A stretch of DNA of 64,000 nt from Verrucomicrobiia bacterium (GCA_052146795.1 JBKQMH010000151.1:1502-65501); one strand, 5' to 3'. Positions 28,619 through 53,838 are shown, counted from the first letter of the stretch. The notes: generated by a model from the sequence alone, not told the origin. Made by a program: numbers and translations.

Positions 28619-28687
28619 ATGAAACGGTCCGTTACCCTGATGTTGAAGGCGAATTTGCCATGTAAGGAGAAGCGGGCCGAATCATGA
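28619..28687 (+). other. 22-codon upstream ORF (MKRSVTLMLKANLPCKEKRAES) translationally coupled (ATGA) to 28684 gene
   Basis: AGGAG 7 nt upstream of its ATG. Its TGA overlaps the ATG of the downstream gene, whose own SD is poorly spaced. Confidence 0.35.
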
Positions 28688-30195: not shown

Positions 30196-31217
30196 ACCTC
30201 CCCGATTACGAATTTCTTTCCGCGCCGCTCTGGCTGATCACGGTCCTGCATGTGTTGACGCTGACACTGCATTTTGTGGCGATGAACTTCCTGTTCGGCG
30301 GCGTCATCATCACACTGTACGCGGCGGTCCGGCGGCGCTGGGATGATCCGACGCTGAAAAAGTTTGTGCGGCTGTTCCCCAGCGCGATGGCGGCGACGGT
30401 CACGCTTGGCGTGGCGCCCTTGCTGTTCCTGCAGATGGTCTATCCCAAGCAGATGTACGCGGCGGCGATCGTGAGCGGCTGGTTCTGGCTGCTGATTATC
30501 GCGGTGGCCATCGTCGTCTATTACGCGCTGTACCGCTGCGCGTTCAAGGCCGAGCGGACGGGTCGGATCAGCCAGGCAGCCCTGGGGCTGGCGTTGCTCG
30601 GACTGCTCTACATCTCGCTGACGTACAGTTCCGTATTCTCGATGGCGGAACGGCCGGGCCAGATTCACAGCCTGTACGCGCAGGATCAATCCGGCTGGAT
30701 GTGGAACCCCGCGGCAGGCGATTACGTCTTGCGCTGGCTGCACATGATGCTCGGCGCGGTCACGGTCGGCGGGTTTTTTGTCGGGATGATTGGACGCGAC
30801 GAGCCGGCGGCGTTCGCGTTGGGCAAACAGTTTTTTGTGGTCGGCATGGTGTTGGCGATGGTGGCGGGGATGGCCTATCTGCTGACGTTGCTGCCGTATC
30901 TGGAGGCGTTCATGCACACGCCAGCGATCTGGGGACTGACGGTGGGCGTGCTGCTCTCGCTCGGGTCACTGCATTTCTTCTTCAAGCGGAGATTCTGCGA
31001 GTCGGGCACGATGTTGTTCGTCTCGATGTTGACGATGGTCTATGCCCGGCACACCGTGCGGCTGTTGAAACTGGCGGCCCAGTTCGACCCCGGTACCTGG
31101 CACGTCGCCCCGCAATGGTCGGTGTTTATCCTGTTCCTGATCTGCTTTGTCGTGATGCTGGCGGTGGTCGGCTACATGCTCCGACTGGTCTTCGGTGCGA
31201 AGCGCGGCGCATCGTAG
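30192..31217 (+). CDS. Polytopic membrane protein, paralog of the membrane domain of 28684..30195 (no cytochrome c domain)
   Basis: LITVLHVLTLTLHFVAMNFLFGG aligns with MAIIAVLHVFVSHFAIGGG of the upstream gene. 4-nt overlap (ATGA). Confidence 0.5.
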   Translation: MNLPDYEFLSAPLWLITVLHVLTLTLHFVAMNFLFGGVIITLYAAVRRRWDDPTLKKFVRLFPSAMAATVTLGVAPLLFLQMVYPKQMYAAAIVSGWFWLLIIAVAIVVYYALYRCAFKAERTGRISQAALGLALLGLLYISLTYSSVFSMAERPGQIHSLYAQDQSGWMWNPAAGDYVLRWLHMMLGAVTVGGFFVGMIGRDEPAAFALGKQFFVVGMVLAMVAGMAYLLTLLPYLEAFMHTPAIWGLTVGVLLSLGSLHFFFKRRFCESGTMLFVSMLTMVYARHTVRLLKLAAQFDPGTWHVAPQWSVFILFLICFVVMLAVVGYMLRLVFGAKRGAS

Positions 31218-31238
31218 TGTGGGCGTCTTTCTGCGATA

Positions 31239-31249
31239 TGTCGCTTAGC
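31239..31249. repeat. 11-bp direct repeat TGTCGCTTAGC (left flank of low-GC cassette)
   Basis: Identical 11-mer at 32839..32849, exactly 1600 bp away. Confidence 0.4.
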
Positions 31250-31339
31250 GATATATCATGGATGGCGCGCGGGCTGTGGTGCGCATGTCATGATTATAGG
31301 TCTGACCCCGATTACTCTAACGGCGTCAGGTCTGCCGTG

Positions 31340-31918
31340 CTATTTGGAGGGTTTCGGTTTGGTTGTTGGAGGCTTTTGCGGAGCGGCTGGCTTCGTGGGC
31401 GGCTTACTCGATGAGGCTGCTTTAGGTGAGCTATTGGCGACCTTCAGTTGCTGTTGCATTAAAGTTTGGAATTTGAGGCTGACTCCTGCGTCTCTTAGGA
31501 GCTCCCCTAGACACTTTTCTAGCGCCTCGCGATTCGAACACTGGTGTTCCGCACCACCCCAAGTCACGGTGCAGGGGTAGCCGTTTCTGTGCTGCTGCCA
31601 CCTCGCCAGCTCATAGACCGTGCTTCCTCCGGCCTTTGGATTCCTAGCAATGATCGCCCAGTAACGCTTTGGCTCTGATGGCGGGCGAAGCATAGCAGCT
31701 CCGATTGCAGCCAGACCAGTAAGAGGCGGCTCAACCTGTTGCTCAACGCGGACGTCGATCGCTCCCTTACTAGCTGCAGATACATCTTTGTTGAGTTGCG
31801 ACAGGACGGCCTTAATCTCGTTTCGTGCTGCGGTCACCTTATCTGCAGCGGTTTGCCCTTGGGCAAAGTCGCCTTTGAAGTCTCTCATCCTTGTTTTCCT
31901 TTCAGTTGAGTCTCTCAA
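31340..31918 (-). CDS. Hypothetical protein with Lys/Pro-rich C-terminal tail (low-GC cassette)
   Basis: 192 aa, no recognisable domain. 17-nt overlap with the upstream EEP gene. About 45% GC against ~63% in the flanks. Confidence 0.45.
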   Translation of the reverse strand: MRDSTERKTRMRDFKGDFAQGQTAADKVTAARNEIKAVLSQLNKDVSAASKGAIDVRVEQQVEPPLTGLAAIGAAMLRPPSEPKRYWAIIARNPKAGGSTVYELARWQQHRNGYPCTVTWGGAEHQCSNREALEKCLGELLRDAGVSLKFQTLMQQQLKVANSSPKAASSSKPPTKPAAPQKPPTTKPKPSK

Positions 31919-32861
31919 TGACGCTTATGACAGGGAAATGGTCAAATTTGACTGCTGTATCCTGGACTAGGGCATCTAGTGGCGGCAATCGGAGAATTCT
32001 CGTTTCACGCTCATTCAGTTGCCAGCCCCCTGGCCTCAAAAACGACGAAGAGAACATAATCTGATCAATAGTTCTCCAATGTGTTCTTGGGTCAGAATCA
32101 CAAAAGCATGTCCCGCCAAAGCTCTTGGTTTGCTTGTCTGAGGCATACGGGTGAGACTCGCCAAGGTGCCGCCAAAAGGGATTATAGAGAAAGTTAGTGC
32201 TGGACCGGGCGAGCTCCCTATCCCGCGTCGCCAGAAGACGCTGAGCTAATGACGCATCGAATGGTTCGTCATTGTAATCCCCGAGAAGGATAATGGCGGG
32301 CTCGACGACGACTTCTCTAATGTTATCGACGGCATTTCTCAACTCGACCCCCAAGTCTTCCCGTTTAGGGGTATTGATCCCCAGAACGCGACTTGGCCAG
32401 TGCGACACCAAAACGTGCACCGAAGACTGGGACGAGGGGATGAAGAATTCGAGCTTGTTCGCGACTTTCAGCGAGCCCGTTCCCTGATCGCCAATGAGTG
32501 CTACCCCTCCCTGTTTTATGAGTCTCGTGCCATTGTAGATGACCCCAGTGTTAAACTCCAGGCCATCAGCCTTAGTGCCATCGAATATGTCGTGATGGGC
32601 AAGGGCACATTGATCACACAAGCGGCCAAGATCTTTGATCGAGACCTCGCCCAATGCCAAGCAATCGACAGCAAGATCTCTCAACAAGAACTGCACGACC
32701 TGAACCGCGACTTGTTTCTGCTCTTTTTCTTGAGCTCTCCTGACGCGGGGCGGAGACAAACTCGTGTTCCACCAAGCAAAGGTCAGTCGCTCAAGCTGCG
32801 GGCTCTGCTTAGAACTTGGCGTTGCTAATTTTGCTGTTTGTCGCTTAGCCATTGCATACAA
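31902..32861 (-). CDS. Endonuclease/exonuclease/phosphatase (EEP) family protein (low-GC cassette)
   Basis: EEP motifs: LTFAWWNTS (N-terminal Mg-binding strand), LLGDYNDEP, IDQIMFSSS, DHFPV. Confidence 0.65.
   Translation of the reverse strand: MYAMAKRQTAKLATPSSKQSPQLERLTFAWWNTSLSPPRVRRAQEKEQKQVAVQVVQFLLRDLAVDCLALGEVSIKDLGRLCDQCALAHHDIFDGTKADGLEFNTGVIYNGTRLIKQGGVALIGDQGTGSLKVANKLEFFIPSSQSSVHVLVSHWPSRVLGINTPKREDLGVELRNAVDNIREVVVEPAIILLGDYNDEPFDASLAQRLLATRDRELARSSTNFLYNPFWRHLGESHPYASDKQTKSFGGTCFCDSDPRTHWRTIDQIMFSSSFLRPGGWQLNERETRILRLPPLDALVQDTAVKFDHFPVISVIERLN
32839..32849. repeat. 11-bp direct repeat TGTCGCTTAGC (right flank of low-GC cassette)
   Basis: See 31239..31249. Confidence 0.4.
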
Positions 32862-33067
32862 GCGTTAAGTTCAACTGATTTCGATTGCCCGCGGAGCTAC
32901 GTGCCGTCGCCCTGACCGCAACTCAGGGCGTGCCCAGTTCCTGCAGAACAGTCGCTAGAGTTTACACATTTAGTGATTTTTGCACAAGCGCAGTTGGTCG
33001 TCATGGGCGAAATGCGGCGGGCGCAGGGGTGGCACAAAGTGATTGCCAGACGCGGCCAATTACCGGT

Positions 33068-35074
33068 CTACGACACGCCGAACGCACGCAGGCCCTGAAA
33101 GACAAGCAGGGAAGCGACGTAGGCCAGGACCGTCATGTAACCGAGTTGGAAGACGGGCCATTTGAGGCTGTTGGTCTCGCGGCGCGTGATGGCTTGCGTC
33201 GCCAGACATTGCATCGCCAGGACGTAGAAAATCAACAGGCTCGCGCAGGTGGCGGTTGTGAACACTTTGGCGCCGTTGGACCGCTGGGCGCGGCGCAGGG
33301 AATCGTAGAGTGATTCCGGGTTTTTCTCGGCGGCATTCTCCCCCACCCCGTACACGACGGCCAGCGTCGAGACCACGACTTCGCGCGCGGCGAAGGAACT
33401 GACGATGCCGATCCCGATTTGCCAGTCGAACCCCAGCGGGCGGATGGCAGGCTCGATCCAGCGCCCGAGATGGCCCGCCGCCGAGTTCGCCAGCGCGGAA
33501 TGACTGATGAGCCGGCCCGCTTGTTCCTGCAATTCGTCGGCGGCCGGCCCGGTCAGTTTCGCGGCCTGTTGCTGCAAGGCGACGGCTTCGGGAGGCGGCG
33601 CGCTCTTGGGATAGGTGGCCAGCGCCCACAACGCGATGGAAATCAACAGAATCACCGTCCCGGCTTTTCGGATAAAGACCCACGCGCGATCCAGCATCAG
33701 GAGGATTGCCGTCCGCAGGCTCGGCAACTTGTAACTCGGCAACTCCAGCACCAGTGGATGCGTTTCGCCCTTCAAGATCGTGTGTTTCAGCGCCAACGCC
33801 GCGACAATCGCCGCGACCAGACCCAGCACGTACGCGCCGCTAAACACGAGCGCCGCTTTCCACGCGTCGTGCGCGAACAACAATGCCGCCAGCATGCTGT
33901 ACACCGGGATCCGGGCGGAGCAGGACACGAGCGGCAGGACGAGAATCGTCACCAACCGGTCCCGTTTATCTTCGATGACGCGGCTGGCCATGATGGCCGG
34001 GATGGCGCAGGCATGGGCGGAGAGCAACGGCACAAACGCCTTGCCCGGCAGACCCACGCGTCGCATGAGCCGGTCCATCACAAACGCCGCGCGCGCCAGA
34101 TAGCCCGTGTCCTCCAGCAACGAGAGACAGAAGAACAGAATGCAAATCTGCGGCAGAAACACCAGCATCCCGCCCAGGCCGCCGATGCCTCCCTTGACGA
34201 GGAGGCTGCGTACATCGCCCGCCCCCATGTGTTGTTCGATCCATGAACCGAGATGGCTGAACAAGCCGTCGATCAAATCCATCGGGATCTGCGCGATGCG
34301 GAAAATCAGGAAGAACACACCCAGCATCACCCCGAAAAACACCAGCACCCCGATCACGGGATGCGTCAACACGGCGTCCAGCCGCTCCGTCCACGGCTGC
34401 GTCACCCGCGGCAAACGCTCGACGCAGTGCCCGACGATCGCGTCCGTCCACGCGTAGCGGGACTTGAACCGGCAACCACTGCATCCGGCGCACATCGGCA
34501 CCGCGGACACAGGCGCCGGCGCGGTCTTCAAGTGTTCGATGGCGCGGCGCAGTTCGCCCAGCCCGCGGCCGGTGCGCGCGACCATCGGTATGACCGGGCA
34601 GCCGAGCGCCCGCGCCAGCTTTACGGCGTCGATGCGGACGCCAGCCGCCTCGGCGAGGTCCATCATGTTGAGGGCGACCACGACCGGGAGTTTCATCTCG
34701 ATAATCTGGCTGACGAGAAACAGGCTCCGACTCAGGTTTGTCGCGTCGGCCACGACAATTGCCGCGTCCGGCCTGCCGGTCTTCGGGGATCGGCCGGTGA
34801 TCACATCCACGGCAACGCGCTCTTCCTCCGATATCGCCTGGAGATCGTAGCACCCGGGCAAATCAATGATTTCGATGGTTTCATCCCGCACCGAGAAGTG
34901 GCCGACCCGGCGCTCGACGGTGGTGCCGGGATAATTCGCCGTCTGCGCGCGCAATCCTGTCAGGGCATTGAACAGCGTGGTTTTCCCGCCGTTCGGGTTG
35001 CCGGCCAGGACGAGCCGGTACGTGTCCTGCGACACGGCTTTCGCCGGCGGACAACAGGATGCCGTGGCACTCAT
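33068..35074 (-). CDS. feoB: Ferrous iron transporter FeoB
   Basis: G-domain (GNPNGGKTTLFNALTG, DLPG), GDI domain, and two gate-motif membrane halves. Start at MSATAS (35074); the track ORF N-extension overlaps feoA. Confidence 0.9.
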   Translation of the reverse strand: MSATASCCPPAKAVSQDTYRLVLAGNPNGGKTTLFNALTGLRAQTANYPGTTVERRVGHFSVRDETIEIIDLPGCYDLQAISEEERVAVDVITGRSPKTGRPDAAIVVADATNLSRSLFLVSQIIEMKLPVVVALNMMDLAEAAGVRIDAVKLARALGCPVIPMVARTGRGLGELRRAIEHLKTAPAPVSAVPMCAGCSGCRFKSRYAWTDAIVGHCVERLPRVTQPWTERLDAVLTHPVIGVLVFFGVMLGVFFLIFRIAQIPMDLIDGLFSHLGSWIEQHMGAGDVRSLLVKGGIGGLGGMLVFLPQICILFFCLSLLEDTGYLARAAFVMDRLMRRVGLPGKAFVPLLSAHACAIPAIMASRVIEDKRDRLVTILVLPLVSCSARIPVYSMLAALLFAHDAWKAALVFSGAYVLGLVAAIVAALALKHTILKGETHPLVLELPSYKLPSLRTAILLMLDRAWVFIRKAGTVILLISIALWALATYPKSAPPPEAVALQQQAAKLTGPAADELQEQAGRLISHSALANSAAGHLGRWIEPAIRPLGFDWQIGIGIVSSFAAREVVVSTLAVVYGVGENAAEKNPESLYDSLRRAQRSNGAKVFTTATCASLLIFYVLAMQCLATQAITRRETNSLKWPVFQLGYMTVLAYVASLLVFQGLRAFGVS

Positions 35075-35355
35075 GCGCACCGTTCCACGACCACGTGTCG
35101 CGCCAGCCGACCCGACACACCGATGCGCGCCCCCAGCAGCCGGAGGATGAGCGGGTTGCCCCGGCGGACGACTTCGAGTTCGCGTCCGACACACAACCCC
35201 ATCGCCATCAGCCGTTGCATCGCCTCCCCGGCCGGTTCGATGTGCTGGACGACAGCCCGCGAGCCGGACGGCAGTTCGTTCAAACTGCACCGGCCGTTGG
35301 CGGGTTCGGCGGCTGATTTGGCCGGTGTGGTAGGTTTTGTCGTCATGGTCGCCAT
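35071..35355 (-). CDS. feoA: Ferrous iron transport protein FeoA
   Basis: SH3-like FeoA motifs (LNELPSGSRAVVQHI, RLMAMGLCVGRELEVVRR, PLILRLLGARIGV). 4-nt overlap with feoB. Confidence 0.7.
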   Translation of the reverse strand: MATMTTKPTTPAKSAAEPANGRCSLNELPSGSRAVVQHIEPAGEAMQRLMAMGLCVGRELEVVRRGNPLILRLLGARIGVSGRLARHVVVERCA

Positions 35356-35677
35356 CGAGTTGTAACAAAGCCCGAGGGTCATTGCCACACCGCCCTGCCA
35401 TTCAACCCCATGCACCGGCTGGACTGCCCCATCAGGAAATCAGGCACCAACCTCGTCGACTGGGTCCACCCTCCAGGCGTTGCGCCCGGGGCAGGCGAAT
35501 AGGTTGGCGCGAGGACCGTTCGTTGACTCTCCGCGATCACAACGCCGAGCGCGGGAGTGAGCGGCATTCGAAATTTGTATGTCGTGCCGGGATAATCCGA
35601 CTCGGCCATGCACGTGCCCGTACCGACTGTGCGGTTGTCGGCGATCGCAACGTTATTCTCGTGACAGTGCATGGTCG

Positions 35678-37048
35678 TCAGTAGGCAAAGGTTTCCAGTT
35701 CATAACGCCCGAGGTGCGGTCGGCCGCGCCGTTCGTTGAATCGAAGGGCCTCGCGGATGGCTTGTTCCTGCGCGCGCATCTGCGCGACGGACAACGACTC
35801 GATCTGTAGCGCGCTGGTTTGTTCGGTGTACCGGCTGTTCGGGTACGTCACCAAGGGCGAAAAATAGATGAAATCATCGCGGCCCAGCGGCAGGTTGTTG
35901 ATCAGGCGCGCCGTCTCCCGCACGTGGGCTTCGGCAAACTCGCGACCGCCAGCACCCAACAGCGCGATCACTCCCACGGTCAGCCCGGCCGTCTTCAGGC
36001 TCGTGACGCATTGGGCGATGCCCTCGCTCGTGGCCGGTTTGCACAGCCACTTCAACAAGTCGTCGTCGCCCGTTTCCAAACCGACATAGACCCGGCGCAG
36101 GCCGAGTTCCCGTAATTCCTCAAAATCGGCGGTGGTACGCCCGGGTCCCGCAAACGCGTCGAGGAACGTGCTCACGCCGTCGAAGCGCGTCTCGTGACCC
36201 AGCCACCAACTGGCGGGAACGTGCTCTTCGGTGTGCGGTGGCAGCTCGAAATGCTCGTGGAGCACGCCAAAGATTTTCACCAAATCCTCGTGTGGCAGGC
36301 TCAGCGCATTGGCCTCACCCAGAAAAATGGAACGTCGTCCCCGCAACGCTTTCCCATGGTATGCAATCGCGTCGGTCACGTGTTTGGCAAACTGGGCGGG
36401 GGTCTTGCGTCCGTAGACCGCGTCGCGATACAACTCGCAGAACAGGCAGCACGAATACGCGCACCCTTCCGTCGCCTGGAGCACGAGCGCGTTGTATTGG
36501 TCGGGCGGAAGCACGGCGACGCGACCGTAAATCGAATGAAATCGTTCCGCATCGCGGCGCGCGGCCGGCTGGTCAAACATCGCGGCGCGTTGCAATGCCG
36601 GCAGGATCTCCGCGAGCGCCTGCCCCGGTCCCGGTTTCGCGTATTCCAACGCGATCGAATTCCCCCGCAATTCGTTCATCACCTGGACAGCCTTCTCGTG
36701 GGCTCCCGTCACCAACGCGTCGGCATCTTCCGTGAGGAGAACGCAACGTTCGATGCCGCCACCCTGTTGGACGGAACGCCGGTGGGTCACCAACACTTGA
36801 TGCGACAGGCCGCGACGTCGATGATGATCGGGCCTCGCGACCTTAGTCAGGCGTCCCTCGAGGTCGTAATGCAACGCCACGTCATTCTCGAAGTAGAGTG
36901 CGAGTTCGAATGCCGAGAGCGCGACGTAGACCCGTTCCCCACCCGACAGGAGCACTTGTAAACCCGCGGTGTAGCGTGGCACCTGCCCGAACGCGAGCGC
37001 CTCCTGGTACTGCAACAGGTTTGTTTTTGTTTCTGCCCCGACTTTCAT
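35678..37048 (-). CDS. Cys-rich hypothetical protein, possible non-canonical radical-SAM-like Fe-S enzyme
   Basis: 456 aa. Cluster EGCAYSCCLFCELY (Cx3CCx2C, not canonical Cx3Cx2C), later GLETGDDD (glycine-rich SAM-site-like). Directly downstream of two SPASM radical-SAM genes. Confidence 0.35.
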   Translation of the reverse strand: MKVGAETKTNLLQYQEALAFGQVPRYTAGLQVLLSGGERVYVALSAFELALYFENDVALHYDLEGRLTKVARPDHHRRRGLSHQVLVTHRRSVQQGGGIERCVLLTEDADALVTGAHEKAVQVMNELRGNSIALEYAKPGPGQALAEILPALQRAAMFDQPAARRDAERFHSIYGRVAVLPPDQYNALVLQATEGCAYSCCLFCELYRDAVYGRKTPAQFAKHVTDAIAYHGKALRGRRSIFLGEANALSLPHEDLVKIFGVLHEHFELPPHTEEHVPASWWLGHETRFDGVSTFLDAFAGPGRTTADFEELRELGLRRVYVGLETGDDDLLKWLCKPATSEGIAQCVTSLKTAGLTVGVIALLGAGGREFAEAHVRETARLINNLPLGRDDFIYFSPLVTYPNSRYTEQTSALQIESLSVAQMRAQEQAIREALRFNERRGRPHLGRYELETFAY

Positions 37049-37071
37049 AAATCAATCTCTCGGTCGCTCCG

Positions 37072-38262
37072 TCAGGCGGTCAACGCCGTCGCCTCGGCAT
37101 AGCCGATTTCCTTGTTGGTCAAATAGCAGGCTGGGTCGGACGCCCACGGATCGCCGTACACCTGCGCCGCCCGGACGCGGAAACTCCCGCCGCAAATGTC
37201 CTGGAACCGGCACTGCCCGCACCGTCCCTTGAGTAACGGCAAGCGGTTCCGCAATTTCGCCAAGAGCGGGATCGAGTTGTCGGACCAAACCTGGCTGAAC
37301 GGCCGCTGCTTCACATTGCCCAGCGTGGCGGCCTGCCAGAACTGGTCGGGATGGACGTTGCCTTGCGTGTCGATATTGGCGATCCCGATGCCCGAGGAGT
37401 TGGCGCCGCCGCCATTCCACTTCATCAATTTGTGGACCTGCTCGGCGCGTTCGGCGTCGCGCTCGCACAGCTTCAAGTACACGTAGGCGTTGTCCGCGTG
37501 GTTGTCGACCGTCAGGATTTCCTTCTTCAACCCTCGTTGATGAAACGACAGGGTACGTTCGAGAATGATGTCCATGGCGCGACGAATCTCCGCCGTCGTC
37601 AACTCGTCGGCGGCGTTGCCGCGACCCGAATACACGAGATGATAAAAGCACGCGCGCTGGATGCCCTCGGCCTCGATGAAGTTGAAAATGTCGTGCAAAT
37701 CCATGCAATTGCGGCGAGTCAGCGTCAGGCGCAAACCAACTTTCTGATCGACCGCGCGACAATTACGCATCCCGCGCACCGCTCCCTCGAATGCGCCCTT
37801 CTTGCCGCGGAAAATATCGTTGGTCTCGCCAATGCCATCCAGCGAGATGCCGACGTACGTGGTGCCGAGTTCCTTGAGCTTCTTCGCCGCGGCTTCATCC
37901 AGTAACGTACCGTTCGTCGAGAGCGTAAGTCGGAGTCCCTTGCCGACGGCATAGCCCATGAGATCGAACAAGTCAGGTCGGGTGAGCGGCTCGCCGCCGG
38001 AAAACAAGACGGCCGGTACTTGGAACACCGCGAGGTCGTCGATCACCCGCAACGCTTCGTCGTGAGTCAGTTCGCCGGGATACTTCTGCGCGTAGCTGTC
38101 CGAGTAACAATGCACGCAACGCAGGTTGCAGGTGCGCGTGACGTTCCACACGACGATCGGACGGCGTTCCGCGGCGGATTTCGGAGCACCCTGGCCATGA
38201 CCGTATCGCAACCCATCGGCGGGCTGCTCTTCACCACAGTAAAGCTTGGTAATGTTGACCAT
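37072..38262 (-). CDS. Radical SAM/SPASM protein, NirJ/AhbC/AhbD family (haem-type tetrapyrrole modification)
   Basis: VVWNVTRTCNLRCVHCY (Cx3Cx2C), LFSGGEPL, C-terminal SPASM cysteines (CGQCRFQDICGG...CY). Confidence 0.7.
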   Translation of the reverse strand: MVNITKLYCGEEQPADGLRYGHGQGAPKSAAERRPIVVWNVTRTCNLRCVHCYSDSYAQKYPGELTHDEALRVIDDLAVFQVPAVLFSGGEPLTRPDLFDLMGYAVGKGLRLTLSTNGTLLDEAAAKKLKELGTTYVGISLDGIGETNDIFRGKKGAFEGAVRGMRNCRAVDQKVGLRLTLTRRNCMDLHDIFNFIEAEGIQRACFYHLVYSGRGNAADELTTAEIRRAMDIILERTLSFHQRGLKKEILTVDNHADNAYVYLKLCERDAERAEQVHKLMKWNGGGANSSGIGIANIDTQGNVHPDQFWQAATLGNVKQRPFSQVWSDNSIPLLAKLRNRLPLLKGRCGQCRFQDICGGSFRVRAAQVYGDPWASDPACYLTNKEIGYAEATALTA

Positions 38263-38287
38263 GACGCTTCCTCCCGGCGTTGCCGCG

Positions 38288-39445
38288 CTACAATGCTTCG
38301 TCCAAAATCTCCTGTTTCCTCATCCGTCGCGGCTCGTAAATGCAGTGTGGCTCTTCCGCCATGTAATTGCCGTGGGTTGCGTAAAATGCCCGGGCACGAC
38401 AGCCGAGACACACTTTTTTGAATTCACACAGCCCGCACTTGCCTTCGAGTTGTTCGACATCGCGCAGGCGACTGAACACTTCCGAGTGCTCCCAAATCTC
38501 CTGCACCGGCTGGTGTTTCACGTTGCCCGCGCTAACGGGCAGATAACCGCACGGGAAAACCTCGCCCGTGTGCGACACGAAGCAAATGGCGCTGCCAGCC
38601 AGGCAGCCCTTCGTCATCGCGGCCATGTTCGGACCGCCGCCATGGCTCGGACGCCCCGGATGACCGTGTCCGGGTTTACCATGGCTGTGCGTGGCCTCGA
38701 TGTGAACATGCTCCACTGTAGCGCGCTGACGCATCACGCGGAAATAATGCGGCGCGCACGTCGCCTTGAGATGAAGAGCGCGCTCCTTGCTCTTGTCGTA
38801 CATCCAGTTGAGCACGCGCTCGTATTCCTCGGCGGGCAGCATGTTCGACTCGGCGATTTGCACCCCGCAGCCGACGGGGACCAGCATGAACAGGTGCAAC
38901 GCGTCTGCGCCAAGTTCCTGGGCGGTGGCATAGAGTGTCTCGATCTGGTGCACATTGTGCCGGGTGACGGTGCAGTTGATTTGCATGCTCATCCCGAGGC
39001 GGCGCAGGTGACGAAAGCCTTTCACCGCCGCCGCCAACGAGCCGGGCTGGCGACGAAAACTGTCGTGTGTGGTCTCGTCGGCGCCATCAATGCTGATCGC
39101 GACGCGTTGGATGCCGCTATCAACAATCGCGTGGGCCATGCGTTCGTCGATGAGCGTCCCGTTGGTGGCCAACGCTACCGCCAACCCTTGGTCGCGCGCG
39201 TGCACCGCGATCTGGAAAATGTCCGGTCGGAAAAGTGGTTCGCCACCGGACAGGACGAGGATGGGTTTGGCAAACGCTGCCAATGCGCGGACAAACAGCA
39301 GCGCTTCCTGGGTGCTAAGATCGTTTTTCATGAGCTGCCGGCTCACGTCGAGACGGCGGCAATGAATGCACTCCAGATTGCAGCCCGCCGTCGTCTCCCA
39401 AAAGAGAAGCCTCAGCTCGTTGTGGTTTTTGGTTTCTGCGACCAT
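38288..39445 (-). CDS. Radical SAM/SPASM protein, NirJ/AhbC/AhbD family (AhbD/haem-synthase-like)
   Basis: LFWETTAGCNLECIHC, LSGGEPL, SPASM (CGLCEFKKVCLGCRARA). Start placed at MVAETKNH (39445) because a sigma-54-like promoter element lies inside the longer track ORF. Confidence 0.7.
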   Translation of the reverse strand: MVAETKNHNELRLLFWETTAGCNLECIHCRRLDVSRQLMKNDLSTQEALLFVRALAAFAKPILVLSGGEPLFRPDIFQIAVHARDQGLAVALATNGTLIDERMAHAIVDSGIQRVAISIDGADETTHDSFRRQPGSLAAAVKGFRHLRRLGMSMQINCTVTRHNVHQIETLYATAQELGADALHLFMLVPVGCGVQIAESNMLPAEEYERVLNWMYDKSKERALHLKATCAPHYFRVMRQRATVEHVHIEATHSHGKPGHGHPGRPSHGGGPNMAAMTKGCLAGSAICFVSHTGEVFPCGYLPVSAGNVKHQPVQEIWEHSEVFSRLRDVEQLEGKCGLCEFKKVCLGCRARAFYATHGNYMAEEPHCIYEPRRMRKQEILDEAL

Positions 39446-39462
39446 AGCCGCAGAATGATTTA

Positions 39463-39477
39463 GCACTGACGGTGCCA
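39463..39477 (-). promoter_or_regulatory. Candidate sigma-54 (-24/-12) promoter, minus strand reads TGGCACCGTCAGTGC
   Basis: GG-N10-GC spacing. Shares TGGCA-N-CTGC architecture with 45310..45324 and 61962..61976. 18 nt upstream of the ATG. Confidence 0.35.
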
Positions 39478-39654
39478 GCACGAGGAAGCGAAGTTCTAAC
39501 TAACGGTGCTGCAATGAACTACGCAGGAAAACACGATGAGGCCTGTGCCCTAAGAACCTGACATTTTGGCAAGATGGCACGAGCCATGTCGACAAGTTGT
39601 CGGCTTGGCCCACTTACTTCAGGAGTGACCGCTGTTTTGGCGCCCCATCTGATA

Positions 39655-41667
39655 CTAGAAGCGGACGCTGCAACTGGCGCTGACCAGATTCGCGACGTAG
39701 TTGTTGAAACCGCCGGTGCTGGACTCGTCGTACGAGTAGAACCCGTAGCGAAGGCGGGCGACCGCATTCTTGCTGATCTTGCGGCTGACGCCTGCCTGAA
39801 CTGCATGGCGTTGGAAATTCAATCCCAGTGGCAGACCGGCGGCGTCGTTGTTGCTGAAATTGTCCGAACACGAGTAGCTGTATTCAAGTGTGAGATCGGT
39901 CTTGTTGTCGATCGCGTAGCCGGTTGTGGCCATGACCGTATACACGTTGCCCCGGTACGTTTGGACGGCGGGGTTTTGATTGACGGGCGTGCTCGTCCGC
40001 GTGTCTTGCAACGAGAAGTAGCCGGTCAGGTACCATCGAGACATCGGCGTGACCGTCGCGCTCACGCTGTAAATATTCAAATCGTAATCGCCCGACTGGA
40101 GTGTGCCGCCGGGCGTAATCACCGGAACAGCTTCCGTGCTGGTGCGGATGTCGGTGGACACGAGCTGGTAGGTGAACGCGACGCTGAACCGCGAGCACGG
40201 GCGCAAGGTCAGTTTGGCCATGGCCTCGTCGGTGGTGAAATCCTGCGCGGTGATGAATCCGGGGTAGCCCACAACGGTGTCGATGGGATAGTCGTAGTCA
40301 TCGTGATCAATGTAATGTCGATAACTGCCGGCCAGCGTCATACGGGACAGCGGTGCGGTGTTGAAGCCAACGCGGTAGTCCTGTCGCAATGTTGTCTCGT
40401 TGGAGTCGACGGCGAGGCTGGAAGCGCCGTCCTCCGTCTCCGTTTGGTCCAAATCGATTTGCTCTTCGTTCCATTGGCCCTCGGCGTAGAGGGTGGTGTA
40501 CGGAATCTTCGTATACCGCATGCCGAGGGTTTCTGAGAGGCTCTCGGTGTTCTCGGACGAACGAATCAGGTTGGTCGTCGCCGCCGAACCGCCTTGTGCG
40601 AGAAGCGCGTCGGTAAAACCGTGCGTATCTGTTTTTTCCGCCTGCAATCCGCCGTAGAGAATGAGGCCCTTGAACGGCCCAAACATGGTATTCAGGTTGA
40701 CCACGTCGGAATCCAACTCAACCCCGATCGCATTGGCCGTCCCGCCGATGTCGAACGGCCCGACCGGCGGCGGGGTACTTACCTGGATGTCGCCGTTACC
40801 GGAGAGCGAGCTGTGCAGATAACCGAGCGACCAATACACCTTGTCATTCACATGGCAGTCCATATGGAACGTATTGTAGAAGGCATCCTGATGATAGTCC
40901 TCGTGAACTGTCACCGTTTGGCTGGAACTCGTGTTCAGGTCTATCGAGGTATCATCGCGCGTATCATCGCTGCCGAAGTGTTCATAGCGGAAGTCGTCCA
41001 ACAGGTGGACCTTGCTAATGTCATAGTCCACGCTCAATTTGACGATATCGGTGTGTTCTTTGATGCCGTCGGTCGAGGGATAAATCTTGCGCGTGTTCGC
41101 GCCCTGCGTGACGCCCCCCCACTCGACCAATGATTCGTCGCCATCCTGTGATTGTCGCTCATAGCCGACGGTGACTTTGGGGAGATTGGGCAAGGTCAGT
41201 CCAGCCTCGAAGAAGATATCGCTGTTATCGATCCGCAGGCCTTGATCCAGACGGAATGACGACGGCGTAAACGGCCCGTAGAAGCCCCCCTGGCTGTCGT
41301 AGTACTCGCGATATTCGGTGTACCCGGTCCGAACAAAACCGAAGTCCCGTTTCGTCAATTGTAACTGGAATTTGTAGTCGTGCTCATCAATGATAAACCG
41401 GCCTTCGCCATCGAGCGTCGTGTCTTTGTTGAGATCGTAATGCAGCGTTCCATCCTCAACGCCGCCGTTCCAGCCCGGCTCGATCCCGAGGTCTTCGCGG
41501 AATTTCTGGGCATTGCCGGACACCTTCGCATACGTCACCTCCGGCGTCCCGGACAACTGGATCGGCGAATTGGTTTGCGAATCATCGCCCCGGGCAGCGG
41601 CGAGCGTCATCAGTCCCAGCGGGAGGGTAACGAGGAGCACTTTGTAGAAGGTGTATTTCATCACCAT
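39655..41667 (-). CDS. Large outer-membrane beta-barrel of a porin-cytochrome conduit (MtrB/OmbB-like by context)
   Basis: 670 aa, signal peptide, alternating-hydrophobic strand pattern throughout, C-terminal ...SCSVRF. Immediately downstream of two multihaem cytochromes. Confidence 0.55.
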   Translation of the reverse strand: MVMKYTFYKVLLVTLPLGLMTLAAARGDDSQTNSPIQLSGTPEVTYAKVSGNAQKFREDLGIEPGWNGGVEDGTLHYDLNKDTTLDGEGRFIIDEHDYKFQLQLTKRDFGFVRTGYTEYREYYDSQGGFYGPFTPSSFRLDQGLRIDNSDIFFEAGLTLPNLPKVTVGYERQSQDGDESLVEWGGVTQGANTRKIYPSTDGIKEHTDIVKLSVDYDISKVHLLDDFRYEHFGSDDTRDDTSIDLNTSSSQTVTVHEDYHQDAFYNTFHMDCHVNDKVYWSLGYLHSSLSGNGDIQVSTPPPVGPFDIGGTANAIGVELDSDVVNLNTMFGPFKGLILYGGLQAEKTDTHGFTDALLAQGGSAATTNLIRSSENTESLSETLGMRYTKIPYTTLYAEGQWNEEQIDLDQTETEDGASSLAVDSNETTLRQDYRVGFNTAPLSRMTLAGSYRHYIDHDDYDYPIDTVVGYPGFITAQDFTTDEAMAKLTLRPCSRFSVAFTYQLVSTDIRTSTEAVPVITPGGTLQSGDYDLNIYSVSATVTPMSRWYLTGYFSLQDTRTSTPVNQNPAVQTYRGNVYTVMATTGYAIDNKTDLTLEYSYSCSDNFSNNDAAGLPLGLNFQRHAVQAGVSRKISKNAVARLRYGFYSYDESSTGGFNNYVANLVSASCSVRF

Positions 41668-41674
41668 GGCTCCG

Positions 41675-42481
41675 TCAATACCGCAGGTGCGCGTTAATGT
41701 CCGAACCGTGAACGGCCGTGTGACAACCCGCGCTGAAACAGGTGCCCTGTTCTAGGAAGCTGGTGGGCGCAAACCCGGCGTGCGGCATGTTCCCGATCGA
41801 TACGACGCCGGGCAGGGTGGGCGAGGCCACCTGCGCGTGGCACTTCAGGCACAGATTATTGTCGCGCTCGGTCAACATCTTCGGGTTGATCGAGCCGTGC
41901 ACGTTGTGGCAAGAGGTGCACCCTTCGCGCATCGCCTCATGCTCGTAGACGTGCGGCCGGGCCTGCTCGCGATGGCATTGCGCGCAATCCTCGTTCACGC
42001 GGCCGACCAGCATGCCCTTCGGTTTGAGAATGTCTTCGCCATGCGGATCGTGACAGGAGATGCAACTCATCCGCCCTTCCTTGACGGGATGATGGTATTG
42101 GAGACTAAACTCGGCGTTCTTATCGAGATGGCACTGGAAACACGCCTCGGGACTCTTGCCGGGGTTGACGATCAGTTTGCGGTCCCCGCCCGAATCCACA
42201 TGTAAACTGCCGGGACCGTGGCAACTCTCGCATCCTTGCCCTTCCACACGCGGTCCCTCGCCGGGAATCTGGATTCGCGCGTGCTCCGTAAGCTTGAAGT
42301 TCTTCACTTCCTTCTCGTGGCACAACGCGCATTGATCCATGCCGACGTACTTGGCGCCCGGAATCATCGGCGGGGCAAGAACCACCCGATCCACCGTCGC
42401 GCAGGAGATGATCAATGCGGCCAACGCGGCGCCACCGATGGCTGCGACTGTTACCGCAGTTGAGGATCGTGGGCTATTCAA
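41675..42481 (-). CDS. Periplasmic multihaem cytochrome c (7 CxxCH + 1 Cx4CH), lipoprotein-like signal
   Basis: CALCH, CESCH, CFQCH, CISCH, CAQCH, CTSCH, CLKCH, CFSAGCH. Signal with ...LIISC. Confidence 0.8.
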   Translation of the reverse strand: MNSPRSSTAVTVAAIGGAALAALIISCATVDRVVLAPPMIPGAKYVGMDQCALCHEKEVKNFKLTEHARIQIPGEGPRVEGQGCESCHGPGSLHVDSGGDRKLIVNPGKSPEACFQCHLDKNAEFSLQYHHPVKEGRMSCISCHDPHGEDILKPKGMLVGRVNEDCAQCHREQARPHVYEHEAMREGCTSCHNVHGSINPKMLTERDNNLCLKCHAQVASPTLPGVVSIGNMPHAGFAPTSFLEQGTCFSAGCHTAVHGSDINAHLRY

Positions 42482-42592
42482 GGATCACCTCTGGTACCAA
42501 TCTCTGCCTGCGAAGGGTCGGGCGGCCGCCTTCGACGACTTGCGTCCTCTGAGCCGCCGCCCGTGTCGAAACCCGCGCCATCGCGCCCACTC

Positions 42593-45280
42593 CTACCGGA
42601 GGACGGCGTACGGATAGGCGTTCGTGTACGTCCTGGTCACGTCATTGTAAAAGTTCGTGCTCAGATCGGTGTAGGTCGTTTGCAACAGGCGGATGGTGAA
42701 CTGCGAGTTGTGCACGCCCATGCTGCCTTCGAAATACTCCAGATTCCAATTCCAAGCGGCCTTGCGTTGCGCTGCCGTCAAAGCTACATTGTTGGTGGAA
42801 TAGCCGCCGCCGAAATAAATAGTGCTTCCATGCGCGATGGTATTGGAGAGACCCGTCGCGTACATCAGGGTCGCCAGATTGTTCAACAGTCCCTGCGTTT
42901 GCGTCTGGATGCCTTCGATCACGCCATTCGTATTGCCGTCATAATTTTGGAAGTTCGCCGCCTGATAGTCGAAGTTAGTGACCGGCCCGAAGCTCCCGTG
43001 GCACTGGTTGCACGCGGCAATGTTCTCCACCACATTGGTCATACCATTCGTGCCCACATATTGGTACGTCATCTCAAACGTGTGGGAGCCCAGCACGTTC
43101 GCATAGGTGGCAAGGTTGTTTGCCGTGATCACAACCGGCGCGTCATTGACGAGGATCGTGTCACCCGCCTTGAGTGAATACATATGGCATTCTTGGCAGC
43201 TCGCCAGGTACGTGTGGAAAGAATTCCCCATCTCCTGGCCATAATCGCAGGCGCCCAAGCCGGCGAACATTTCGCCAGCGGTGCTCATGTCCGGTGTAGT
43301 TGTCTGGTAGAACATCTGATTGGTACCGGAGCCGCTGACCTGGATTTGCGTCGGCCACATTCGCTCATTGTGGCAGACCATGCAGGCCGCGGACAAACCA
43401 GCATTGGTCACGGTGACGGTGCTGTTGGTCAACGCCAGATTCGCCGTGGTCAGGCTGTCGCCGAGGCCGATGCGAACCGTCGGGCTGTTCGTCAGTAGCG
43501 GGTTGCCCAATTGGACGGTGTCATAAACCCGCAATTGGTGGCGCGCCGAATCGGGCGCATTGCCGAAGTTGCTATGCGGATCGTGGCAGACCTGGCAGGT
43601 CAACGGCCCGGTGCCCAGGGCCACCGCGGTCAAGCCCGCCGCGTTGGTGATGGCGGCGGCGACCTGGTTCGTCGCGACGCTGATAAAGGCAGCGGGCGAA
43701 TGGCATCGCGCGCAGCCTGAATTGTTGCCCTCTGAATCGGATATGCTCTCAAACGCTCCCGCGTGCGGCGAAATCTCCCATTGCTGGACATTGACTTCCT
43801 CGGTGCCGCTCTGGTGGCAGCTCGAGCAGACCTTCTCATTCAGGCTGACGGACGGCGAACCCGGATGCTGGCTGCCGGGACCGTGGCAGTTTTCGCACTG
43901 GATGTTGGCCAGATTCTGGAGCTGAGCGGGCATCAACGCGTAGTTGCCCGCTTGGAGCACGGTGGGGAAATTCCAGCCAAGTTGTTGTTGGACAGCATAG
44001 AAATTGCCGTTGGCCGCCGCCGCCGGTGATTGGTTGAAGCCGACGGTATGGCATTGGAAGCAAGACTCGTTGTAATGCGAGGAGAGGACTCCGTCCACCC
44101 CGCGCTGGGCCATCGTCGCATGCCCCGTCCCTTGCCACGGCGTAACCATATCGGCCAGACCGACCAGGTTGCCCGGGCCATGGCAGATCGCGCAGAACTC
44201 CACACCGGTCCAGCTGGCCGCCGTGTTGGTGACAGTCTGGCCCGTGACATTGTCCTGAATCACGTATATGCCCTGGACGTCAGGCCGCAACGCAGCGATC
44301 AAACCATTGGTGTGTGTAAGGGCGGCGACGGAACCAGCAGGCTTGGACACGAGTGACCAGTTCATGCTATTGGTCGCCCCCTTATAAAAGGCGGTTACGC
44401 CTGCCGGAATATTCGGTTGTGCGGGCGTCTGGACGGAACACGCCACCGTGAAAACCCCGGTGCGTGTGACCGAGCCATTGCTGACGAGCACTTGGAAGCC
44501 GTACGTGGCTGCGCCCGCCTCTTCGTTGTCAAGGGAAATGCCGCTGGCAGCGCCAAACCGATGTTCTGGCGGCACATACGGTTGATTCGTGTAAACGCCG
44601 GCGGTGTGAAAGTCGATAGTGTTCACGAAGGGTGCTGTCGTCGTGGCCATATCCACGAAGTTCGTCAGCGCATCCGTGGTGAAACTGGTCGAGACAGCGC
44701 CGTTGGCGCTCAGCGCAACCGTCTTGCCGCTGGTCTGGCTCCAGGTGTACGTCAGCGTCCCTGCCAGGCCACTGGTGGGGACGATCGAGCCGTCCAGCGT
44801 TACCGAGTTTTCGAATCCCACATCGTAGAGGTTTGTCGTCACAGTCAGAGACCCCGACGGAACGGCGTTGGTGACGGAGGTGATGGTAACGTGCAATGTC
44901 TTTGAGCCGATGTTCTTGCGGTCAAAAGTCGCGGTCACGTGCACAGTCGCAACGCCAACGAAGTTGGTGGGGATGAGAACCGATGTGCCCGACACGTTCG
45001 TACTGGCGCCAACCGGCGGGTTGGTAATGGTGAGCACGGGGAACTTCGTCGTCCGGAATTTTTTGCCGCTGACCGTGGCCTTGACGACCAACGGACCCGT
45101 GTTGGTCACGACATTCAAATCGAACTGGTAGCTGAGCGTGCCTCCCGACACGATGGTCCCGGCAGCTGAGACAGTCCCAAGCTTGGCGGCAGCAGGCGCG
45201 GCGTGTGTTTGCAAAGCGACCATGGTAGACAGTGCGACGACCAGCGCACCGACTCGTTTCAGAAAATGTGTTCCCGTCAT
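42593..45280 (-). CDS. Large secreted/surface multihaem cytochrome c (9 CxxCH) with N-terminal beta-rich (Ig-like) region
   Basis: Signal peptide, ~330-aa Thr/Val-rich N-terminal region, then CAICH, CFQCH, CENCH, CSSCH, CARCH, CQVCH, CMVCH, CQECH, CNQCH. Confidence 0.8.
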   Translation of the reverse strand: MTGTHFLKRVGALVVALSTMVALQTHAAPAAAKLGTVSAAGTIVSGGTLSYQFDLNVVTNTGPLVVKATVSGKKFRTTKFPVLTITNPPVGASTNVSGTSVLIPTNFVGVATVHVTATFDRKNIGSKTLHVTITSVTNAVPSGSLTVTTNLYDVGFENSVTLDGSIVPTSGLAGTLTYTWSQTSGKTVALSANGAVSTSFTTDALTNFVDMATTTAPFVNTIDFHTAGVYTNQPYVPPEHRFGAASGISLDNEEAGAATYGFQVLVSNGSVTRTGVFTVACSVQTPAQPNIPAGVTAFYKGATNSMNWSLVSKPAGSVAALTHTNGLIAALRPDVQGIYVIQDNVTGQTVTNTAASWTGVEFCAICHGPGNLVGLADMVTPWQGTGHATMAQRGVDGVLSSHYNESCFQCHTVGFNQSPAAAANGNFYAVQQQLGWNFPTVLQAGNYALMPAQLQNLANIQCENCHGPGSQHPGSPSVSLNEKVCSSCHQSGTEEVNVQQWEISPHAGAFESISDSEGNNSGCARCHSPAAFISVATNQVAAAITNAAGLTAVALGTGPLTCQVCHDPHSNFGNAPDSARHQLRVYDTVQLGNPLLTNSPTVRIGLGDSLTTANLALTNSTVTVTNAGLSAACMVCHNERMWPTQIQVSGSGTNQMFYQTTTPDMSTAGEMFAGLGACDYGQEMGNSFHTYLASCQECHMYSLKAGDTILVNDAPVVITANNLATYANVLGSHTFEMTYQYVGTNGMTNVVENIAACNQCHGSFGPVTNFDYQAANFQNYDGNTNGVIEGIQTQTQGLLNNLATLMYATGLSNTIAHGSTIYFGGGYSTNNVALTAAQRKAAWNWNLEYFEGSMGVHNSQFTIRLLQTTYTDLSTNFYNDVTRTYTNAYPYAVLR

Positions 45281-53737: not shown

Positions 53738-53838
53738 TCCCCCGGGGTGGTCATTCTGAGCGCGGGGAAGAAGCTTTGGATCGCCTCCCTTGTGGGGATC
53801 TTCGCTTCGGTCAGGGTGAAAGACTGGAAAAGCGGCGT

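Follow-up and report, generated by a model that had tools for sequence, protein, structure and literature searches.

On balance it is probable, if far from certain, that the five genes at positions 33068-39481 of the window (the whole 64-kb stretch of DNA that was analysed) form a conserved Verrucomicrobial module in which oxygen-independent completion of haem b would be combined with ferrous-iron supply, attached to porin-cytochrome genes for extracellular electron transfer. All five open reading frames, encoded on the minus strand, were confirmed at these coordinates, and the family matches bear out the first-pass annotation, which had described feoAB, two NirJ/AhbC/AhbD-type enzymes and a third gene, here termed rSAM3 (Table 1). 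Its placement of the block between cytochrome loci also proved correct. The upstream trio consists of an 895-aa cytochrome with 9 CXXCH motifs, a 268-aa cytochrome with 7 CXXCH motifs and a 670-aa putative outer-membrane barrel that has a signal peptide and a C-terminal Phe, and the downstream flank (28684-30195) encodes a cytochrome-bd-like/cytochrome c fusion.

Table 1. Features of the block and its upstream flank (positions in the window)
Feature	Position (nt)	Strand	Basis
ahbD-like radical-SAM/SPASM gene, haem b synthase type	38288..39481	-	NCBIfam TIGR04545 AhbD top match
His/Gly-rich variable insertion in AhbD-like, ~residues 255-290	38612..38719	-	Alignment of 33 proteins
ahbC/nirJ1-like radical-SAM gene, 12,18-didecarboxysirohaem deacetylase type	37072..38262	-	TIGR04054 NirJ1 and TIGR04546 AhbC
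rSAM3, 456 aa, uncharacterised radical-SAM family	35678..37048	-	Pfam Radical_SAM and predicted TIM-barrel
rSAM3 predicted cluster-binding motif C196-X4-C201-X2-C204	36437..36463	-	Cys conservation in homologues
feoA	ORF 35071..35415, likely start ATG 35355	-	PF04023 (53.1 bits) and sequence reading
feoB, Fe2+ transporter	33068..35074 after start correction; ORF listed 33068-35401	-	TIGR00437
Porin-cytochrome trio, upstream of ahbD-like	39655..45280	-	Pfam MtrC/MtrF-like and paired-CXXCH domains

In the window, the same-strand gaps amount to 25 nt between ahbD and ahbC and 23 nt between ahbC and rSAM3. From reading the sequence, an ATG at about 39445 is the likely true start of the ahbD-like gene, and about 109 N-terminal codons of the feoB ORF as listed appear spurious; with ATG 35074 as the likely start, feoB and the feoA stop overlap by 4 nt. 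FeoA matches its Pfam model with 53.1 bits (vs 23), and FeoB scores 517 bits with TIGR00437 (cut-off 315.65) and has the FeoB_N, Gate and FeoB_C domains. With FeoB domains above cut-off and FeoA adjoining, the pair is assigned to FeoAB. The host is an uncultured soil/peat Verrucomicrobium.

The AhbD-like protein has Pfam matches to Radical_SAM (6.9e-22) and SPASM (9.9e-9). TIGR04545 AhbD, which outscores every other NCBIfam model by more than 100 bits, covers residues 25-384 over its full length (1-339/339); the score of 437.6 bits is, however, below the equivalog cut-off of 500. The radical-SAM motif CX3CX2C comprises C34/38/41, and eight further cysteines follow in the C-terminal part (C242-X50-C293-X17-C311-X37-C349-X2-C352-X5-C358-X2-C361-X18-C380). 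All eight agree with the full SPASM motif published for AhbD of the methanogen and sulfate-reducer type (CX20-33CX17CX36-37CX2CX5CX2CX17-35C), the first spacer alone being longer (50). When 33 AhbD-like proteins from Verrucomicrobia were aligned, two conserved cysteines were seen to flank a loop of variable length that is rich in HSHGKP and GHGHPG, and the first spacer is enlarged because this variable His/Gly-rich insertion sits there.

The AhbC-like protein (Radical_SAM, 3.9e-28) scores highest with TIGR04054 NirJ1 (548 bits, 1-387/387), followed by TIGR04546 AhbC with 496 and NirJ with 417 bits; none of the three scores reaches its cut-off (650 for NirJ1 and AhbC, 515 for NirJ). Judged by these scores, it is about equally far from the three models, and its substrate assignment is tentative. 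It contains CX3CX2C (C45/49/52) together with C348-X2-C351-X5-C357-X21-C379, and thus the published motif pair CX3CX2C and CX2CX5CX20-21C; the latter is the auxiliary-cluster motif of NirJ, and a near-identical motif occurs in AhbC and AhbD (PMC10114771). Homologues with at least 78% identity are exclusively Verrucomicrobial, several being named 'Fe-coproporphyrin III synthase' by JGI. The two signatures quoted earlier for the tandem enzymes, LFWETTAGCNLEC and VVWNVTRTCNLRC, are both present, and the kinship to AhbC, AhbD and NirJ holds in that these models match best and over full length, but not at the level of the equivalog cut-offs.

That rSAM3 genuinely is a radical-SAM enzyme follows from its Pfam match to Radical_SAM (PF04055; 38.8 bits against a gathering score of 29.5) and from a structural model with a confident TIM-barrel. 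In the predicted layout, residues 1-175 form an N-terminal domain of the beta-meander/helical kind, and the radical-SAM barrel spans residues 185-400 or so. Together with three conserved cysteines, this substantiates the earlier suspicion of a non-canonical radical-SAM enzyme. The cysteine cluster (CAYSCCLFC, C196-C204) had been located correctly, yet its reading as Cx3CCx2C needs revision. Among 29 Verrucomicrobial homologues, no substitution occurs at C196, C201 or C204, whereas position 200 may be occupied by S, G, N, Q, H, A, D or C; since C200 is variable, the real cluster motif is CX4CX2C. C196 and C201 are likewise unchanged throughout 36 family members from several phyla, in which C204 shows a conservation of at least 90%. 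The GLETGDDD motif, likewise noted before, occupies residues 323-330. The core weakly resembles class B (cobalamin-type), Elp3 and MiaB enzymes. A cobalamin-binding Rossmann-like N-terminal domain was sought and is absent, the N-terminal domain matched none of the solved folds, SPASM and RRE domains were not found, and none of the curated families searched covers the protein.

We compared the loci around rSAM3 in 40 species-level Verrucomicrobiota genomes. The ahbC-like gene lies immediately upstream (<200 nt) in 32 of them and within 6 kb in 34; where the arrangement is kept, the genes overlap by 4 nt, as in L001 and L003, or are separated by less than 65 nt. An ahbD-like gene is found upstream in 31/40 loci. 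feoB, located downstream in 25/40, is a frequent rather than a constant partner, and the porin-cytochrome trio precedes the ahbD-like gene in 22/40. This synteny persists as rSAM3 identity drops to 42-52%. Two further observations speak for the proposed haem and iron module. Firstly, the tie between ahbC and feo is seen independently in sister Verrucomicrobia (L096), where the ahbC-like gene overlaps feoB directly. Secondly, haem demand is evident from at least 48 CXXCH sites encoded in the window and from hemA, which has resB and ccsA, two genes of cytochrome c maturation, on either side. The first-pass annotation had taken the block as a hint of alternative haem biosynthesis dedicated to a massive cytochrome load; synteny and the number of CXXCH sites support such a tie, but the dedication itself is something we can only infer, because the ahb-rSAM3 block also exists without the trio in many genomes (e.g. 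L001 and L027).

According to our preferred reading, the AhbC-type enzyme would employ a 5'-deoxyadenosyl radical to strip the C2 and C7 acetates of 12,18-didecarboxysirohaem, yielding coprohaem. The AhbD-type enzyme, equipped with two SPASM auxiliary clusters besides its radical-SAM cluster, would then transform the two ring A/B propionates into vinyls by oxidative decarboxylation to give haem b, and FeoAB would import Fe(II) for haem as well as for the many Fe-S clusters. rSAM3, presumably co-transcribed with ahbC and translationally coupled in relatives, would with its CX4CX2C motif, class-B/Elp3-like barrel and novel N-domain most likely carry out or aid one more tetrapyrrole reaction of this pathway, a role suggested by synteny. 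The sub-cut-off Ahb scores weigh against the haem b module, as does the failure to find other pathway genes nearby. Neither ahbA/ahbB, in agreement with the earlier note for the window, nor a sirohaem synthase gene turned up in the window itself or, at distances of up to 10 kb, in any of 48 related loci, and the sole AsnC-type gene is an ordinary Lrp. The breadth of the rSAM3 family and the ahbC-like genes without adjoining rSAM3, both described below, likewise count against this reading, and AhbC activity has been published for cell-free extracts to which no partner genes were added. Given the outcome for ahbA/ahbB, anaerobic haem b supply is the most plausible reading but is not proven.

There is some chance, albeit clearly a lesser one, that rSAM3 is a housekeeping enzyme unconnected with haem, placed in this lineage in one operon with ahbC and feoAB that responds to anaerobiosis or iron; the Ahb-like genes would then still make haem. 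The breadth of the family is in line with this idea: it comprises 533 clusters (50% identity) at E<1e-30, the N-domain residues D62, G65, R66 and R79 are conserved outside Verrucomicrobiota too, and the loci of distant relatives from Chloroflexota, Acidobacteriota and Clostridia are devoid of Ahb or Feo neighbours. Elsewhere, rSAM3 is found beside 2-oxoacid:ferredoxin oxidoreductase and DUF3786 genes (about 10/40 loci) or in other, inconsistent contexts (CoA-transferase with acyl-CoA dehydrogenase; beta-eliminating lyase with EamA transporter). Moreover, some Verrucomicrobia have an ahbC-like gene without adjoining rSAM3 (L089, L090, L096), and the most divergent Verrucomicrobial rSAM3 genes (L043, L046) stay by feoB rather than ahbC. 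On the other hand, ahbC adjacency in 32/40 species despite divergence to about 52% exceeds what would be expected for a passenger gene, and ahbC is still within 6 kb of rSAM3 even in L046 and L048. That rSAM3 is, conversely, an unrecognised anaerobic tetrapyrrole enzyme partnering AhbC, either as a radical substitute for AhbA/AhbB or by catalysing a new step on the AhbC substrate or product, we consider unlikely. If true, the sirohaem-dependent haem pathway would exist in Verrucomicrobia as a variant with three radical-SAM enzymes, linked both to the uptake of Fe(II) and to extracellular electron transfer.

That ahbAB was not seen in the window or the related loci would also be compatible with a quite improbable scenario, in which haem is formed through a coproporphyrin-dependent or classical route, the AhbD-like protein serves as anaerobic coprohaem decarboxylase only, and the AhbC-like protein and rSAM3 act on another tetrapyrrole. 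For the latter, a cofactor of the neighbouring cytochromes is conceivable, as is, by NirJ-like chemistry, a haem or isobacteriochlorin in modified form. AhbD is indeed found in organisms without the other Ahb enzymes (2026 review), the AhbC-like protein scores nearly equally with the NirJ1, AhbC and NirJ models, and in sister genomes the ahbC-like gene follows genes for DUF1638 and an AcsV/RACo-type corrinoid reductive activase. Yet the ahbD-like and ahbC-like genes adjoin in most loci, as would fit consecutive steps, and the block lacks the cytochrome trio in many genomes. Furthermore, the window and the related loci revealed no cd1 nitrite reductase, nirF/nirN or other nir genes, and the surroundings of the cluster yielded no classical late haem gene. 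A URO-D-family gene in L097 was considered as HemE and rejected by NCBIfam.

It is highly improbable that the block is a natural-product cluster whose two tandem enzymes mature peptides (RiPPs). They do contain SPASM/Twitch domains and give weaker matches to mycofactocin, PqqE and sactipeptide models, but the tetrapyrrole models match end to end with 437-548 bits, three- to fourfold higher than the peptide-maturase models (at most 160 bits), a conserved ORF for a small precursor is lacking because the intergenic DNA is poorly conserved, peptidase and exporter are not present, and rSAM3 has neither SPASM nor RRE; the sequence comparisons thus support membership of both enzymes in the tetrapyrrole AhbC/AhbD/NirJ group.

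Like the AhbC/AhbD systems of sulfate reducers and methanogens (Desulfovibrio, Methanosarcina barkeri), the block has two consecutive radical-SAM genes whose products give top full-length HMM matches and share the CX3CX2C and auxiliary cysteine motifs. It differs from them in the scores under the equivalog cut-offs, the host phylum Verrucomicrobiota, the variable insert of the AhbD-like protein, the lack of nearby ahbA/ahbB, and the third radical-SAM gene and feoAB joined to the cluster; our literature search returned no paper connecting Ahb genes with Verrucomicrobiota. With NirJ (haem d1) and Firmicute NirJ1/NirJ2, the AhbC-like protein has in common its top model, NirJ1, and the NirJ auxiliary motif, whereas NirJ proper scores lower (417 bits, cut-off 515) and the nir genes are not found in the window or loci. 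rSAM3 lacks a HemN_C domain and does not meaningfully resemble HemN/CgdH or HemW in sequence (one of the 36 family members gives a HemW match, 4.5e-4), and its modelled structure is no more similar to these proteins than to unrelated radical-SAM enzymes. In a comparison with class B, Elp3 and methylthiotransferase enzymes (OxsB, MgmA, PhpK, HpnJ, BchE, Elp3, RimO/MiaB), rSAM3 is set apart by the absence of cobalamin Rossmann, TRAM, UPF0004 and acetyltransferase domains and by scores of at most 25 bits with models whose cut-offs are about 600. The CX4CX2C spacing, described before for OxsB and for a megacluster of RadicalSAM.org, is nevertheless common to rSAM3, OxsB and Elp3 in the aligned segments, and the 'GLETG' strand of rSAM3 aligns with 'GVESG' of OxsB.

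The block at 33068-39481 comprises five open reading frames, as the first-pass annotation had described, all of them on the minus strand and in the same direction. Each obtained a family match, and the motifs that had been quoted were all found where the annotation placed them. Reading of the sequence puts the most likely starts at an ATG near 39445 for ahbD, at 35355 for feoA and at 35074 for feoB, the last giving a 4-nt overlap with the feoA stop. The gaps are 25 nt between ahbD and ahbC, 23 nt between ahbC and rSAM3, the gene of a 456-aa radical-SAM protein, and about 260-320 nt between rSAM3 and feoA. Rfam detected no regulatory RNA in 31-42 kb, and promoter and terminator counts in 32.8-39.9 kb were not above those of shuffled sequence.

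Features of the block and its surroundings, with positions in the window
Feature	Position	Strand	Remarks
Cytochrome-bd-like genes	28684-31217		503-aa fusion and 341-aa membrane protein
Insertion	31218-33040		between feoB and cytochrome-bd-like genes
192-aa protein of unknown function	31340-31918		part of insertion
Endonuclease/exonuclease/phosphatase family, 319 aa	31902-32861		part of insertion
feoB	33068-35401 (as listed)	-	canonical; 517 bits against a cut-off of 316
feoA	35071-35415	-	canonical
rSAM3	35678-37048	-	Radical_SAM match above gathering score; nothing else notable
ahbC/nirJ1-like	37072-38262	-	TIGR04054, 548 bits; TIGR04546, 496 bits; NirJ, 417 bits
ahbD-like	38288-39481	-	Pfam Radical_SAM and SPASM; TIGR04545, 437.6 bits
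His/Gly-rich loop	38612-38719		within ahbD-like
Porin-cytochrome trio	39655-45280	-	two multihaem cytochromes and a 670-aa putative outer-membrane barrel
σ54 two-component system	45627-48540
Electron-transfer array	48533-58930
ORF of the array	54756-57248 (as listed)		overlaps neighbour
ccsA	58902-59699		System II cytochrome c maturation
hemA	59635-60720		glutamyl-tRNA reductase
resB	60717-61931		System II cytochrome c maturation

Among the NCBIfam models, AhbD haem b synthase (TIGR04545) ranked first for the ahbD-like product; the alignment spans all 339 model positions, the next model lies more than 100 bits behind, and the score is below the equivalog cut-off of 500. The ahbC-like product matched NirJ1 (over the full length), AhbC and NirJ, in this order and each below the model's own cut-off, and its clade is about equally distant from the three models. 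When the tandem enzymes were checked against the AhbC, AhbD and NirJ HMMs, as the first-pass annotation had proposed, tetrapyrrole models scored best, and peptide-maturase models reached at most 160 bits, also with the AhbC-like protein. This ranking gives no sign of clustering with peptide maturases, and it rules out a reading of the pair as RiPP maturases.

The cysteines of the AhbD-like protein form a CX3CX2C motif plus eight further positions with spacings of 50/17/37/2/5/2/18. Compared with the full SPASM motif of AhbD from methanogens and sulfate reducers, CX20-33CX17CX36-37CX2CX5CX2CX17-35C (PMC10452713), the sole deviation is the first spacer, which is longer because of a length-variable His/Gly-rich loop between two SPASM cysteines. 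In an alignment of 33 Verrucomicrobial orthologues (including those of loci L003-L048) this loop varies in length between about 10 and more than 60 residues; it is possibly a metal-binding or a disordered insert. The AhbC-like protein carries CX3CX2C and CX2CX5CX21C; the auxiliary motif of NirJ is of the CX2CX5CX21C type, and AhbC and AhbD have almost the same motif (PMC10114771). With both cysteine patterns matching the published ones, the two proteins are, judged by their sequences, members of the tetrapyrrole radical-SAM group. To this extent the earlier interpretation is supported, but HMM scores below the cut-offs do not by themselves confer formal equivalog membership. Homologues of the AhbC-like protein with at least 78% identity are exclusively Verrucomicrobial, and several bear the JGI pipeline name 'Fe-coproporphyrin III synthase'. 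PDB sequence and profile searches returned no structure of AhbC, AhbD or NirJ, and the literature searched held no paper linking Ahb genes to Verrucomicrobia.

The third gene had been described as possibly radical-SAM-like, which agrees with its Radical_SAM match, and as having a Cx3CCx2C cluster. Aligning 29 homologues, 50-89% identical to the window protein, corrects the latter: C196, C201 and C204 never vary, whereas C200 does. In 36 members from several phyla, C196 and C201 are likewise fixed, and C204 is kept in at least 90%. Therefore, the motif is CX4CX2C, a spacing already known from OxsB and a RadicalSAM.org megacluster. In PDB sequence and profile searches rSAM3 reached only OxsB and Elp3, weakly; the profile alignments show the same spacing in OxsB 'GCDYSRCTFC' and Elp3 'KCPHGKCIFC', and OxsB 'GVESG' aligns with the 'GLETG' strand of rSAM3. 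The barrel of the window protein and of 36 diverse members gave only weak NCBIfam matches, to the class-B enzymes PhpK, MgmA, HpnJ and BchE, and no cobalamin-binding domain was found in rSAM3. An identity as a HemN/HemW-like protein was ruled out, as rSAM3 has neither sequence similarity to these nor a HemN_C domain. The family counts 3558 representatives at 50% identity with E<1e-3 and 533 with E<1e-30; the sources name them no more specifically than 'radical SAM protein' or 'YgiQ-like', and the distant relatives only 'radical SAM protein'. PADLOC matched neither rSAM3 nor the two inserted genes at 31340-32861 to a defence system.

The window rSAM3 is 100% identical to a protein of a Verrucomicrobiia metagenome-assembled genome, and a scan with one genome per species detected relatives in 281 species. 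Verrucomicrobiota alone, from peat, bog, soil and groundwater, make up the best 40 (42-95% identity); next come Chloroflexota (Anaerolineae) and a few Acidobacteriota (32-40%). We searched the loci of 40 Verrucomicrobial species with the window proteins by tblastn. An ahbC-like gene ends less than 200 nt upstream of rSAM3 in 32 of the 40 loci and lies within 6 kb upstream in 34; in L001 and L003 the two genes overlap by 4 nt. Upstream of rSAM3 there is also an ahbD-like gene (31/40) and the porin-cytochrome trio (22/40), and feoB follows within about 800 nt downstream in 25 loci, as either of two types with about 75-97% or about 30-43% identity to the window feoB. The closest relatives, e.g. 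L006 and L009, keep the whole backbone order of σ54 two-component system, porin-cytochrome trio, ahbD, ahbC, rSAM3 and feoAB.

In some Verrucomicrobia an ahbC-like gene of 80% identity has no rSAM3 next to it (L089 7193-13622; L090 7298-11176; L096 6243-12634). There it comes after DUF1638 and an AcsV/RACo-type ATP-dependent corrinoid reductive activase, possibly an alternative set of accessories to the AhbC-like enzyme; feoB-feoA follows in L089 and L096, with a 4-nt ahbC/feoB overlap in L096. Therefore, ahbC is paired most persistently with feoB and, in the clade of the window, with rSAM3. In L033 (2646-11374), only two unknown genes separate the porin-cytochrome trio from rSAM3 downstream of it, and neither ahbC nor ahbD occurs within 10 kb. 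Some relatives have a PocR-AraC regulator after the ahbD-like gene (L097 51-14132; L041 1217-11377; L003 5045-11365), in L097 with a GltD-like Fe-S flavoprotein in between. L041 and L097 also carry a complete haem-copper oxidase operon (COX2, COX1, COX3, COX4) between ahbD and ahbC-rSAM3, and these organisms therefore respire oxygen, too.

Farther away the neighbourhood changes. In 40 Chloroflexota/Acidobacteriota loci no Ahb- or Feo-like gene lies within 10 kb of the rSAM3 homologue. In about 10 of them it is located upstream of 2-oxoacid:ferredoxin oxidoreductase alpha, beta and gamma genes, near which DUF3786, GyrI-like and CBS-domain proteins are encoded (L049-L071, e.g. L071 2503-10001); the contexts of other distant members are unrelated and inconsistent.

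With gene identity, motifs, fold and synteny as observed, the best-supported reading is an oxygen-independent module for finishing haem b combined with Fe(II) import, for which we infer the substrates and the pathway. The AhbC-type enzyme would act first and the AhbD-type enzyme next, completing haem b without oxygen, with Fe(II) imported alongside. The block is co-located with a set of extracellular-electron-transfer cytochromes, and the haem c demand of the host is very high (at least 48 CXXCH sites in the window alone). The weakest point of the haem reading is that neither ahbA/ahbB nor sirohaem genes occur in the window or the fetched loci. A jackhmmer search from the AsnC-type gene of L003 revealed no further AsnC-like protein among 4525 ORFs from all the loci retrieved; given the distance of AhbA/B from Lrp, this test is weak. 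This AsnC-type gene itself is a normal Lrp regulator and was ruled out as ahbA/ahbB, and a URO-D-family gene near the L097 cluster was ruled out as hemE, having no NCBIfam HemE match.

As for rSAM3, that it stays tightly coupled to ahbC over deep divergence points to a shared pathway, whereas a family so broad, with unrelated contexts elsewhere, points to a more general or different function. On balance, we consider a role in the haem pathway plausible, though somewhat less likely than not. That rSAM3 supplies a new tetrapyrrole step, such as a replacement of AhbAB, is one variant of such a role and is unlikely.

Several other features of the window deserve mention. hemA lies between resB and ccsA and overlaps both at its ends; thus, the cytochrome c assembly operon appears to enclose the first committed haem gene. 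In the electron-transfer array, two fusion proteins encoded in tandem each combine 11 CXXCH sites with a cytochrome b561-type membrane domain; NrfD-like and 4Fe-4S dicluster subunits are present in two sets, along with one 8-haem cytochrome. Together these genes constitute a large quinol-to-periplasm array upstream of the σ54 two-component system; for its overlapping ORF the real start is probably a signal-peptide Met near residue 174. On the other side of the block, the 503-aa protein is a fusion of a cytochrome bd subunit-I-like membrane domain with two c-type haem domains (2 CXXCH sites); its gene is followed by the overlapping gene of the 341-aa protein, which has no Pfam match. L009 has the insertion next to feoB; L014 lacks it, its flanks being separated by about 60 nt, and L010 and L015 have different inserts of about 5 kb there. 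Therefore, this site is a variable hotspot.

Of the enzymes in the alternative haem pathway, AhbC is understood least. No study of the purified protein has been published (PMC10114771). A conserved, translationally coupled partner gene would be a concrete lead to the missing chemistry or partners. The haem reading would also extend synthesis of haem without oxygen to Verrucomicrobia that are abundant in peat and soil but uncultured. They appear equipped for extracellular electron transfer, and the same cluster ties Fe(II) import to haem supply. Moreover, the family of rSAM3 is large (hundreds of clusters at 50% identity), has a new N-terminal domain and has been assigned no function. If rSAM3 were a mere passenger, the block would be just another, ordinary case of ahbCD and feoAB. 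As regards ahbCD and feoAB, a known system is seen here in a new place; the conserved architecture of three radical-SAM enzymes, including an uncharacterised CX4CX2C enzyme with a novel N-terminal domain, is worth an experiment.
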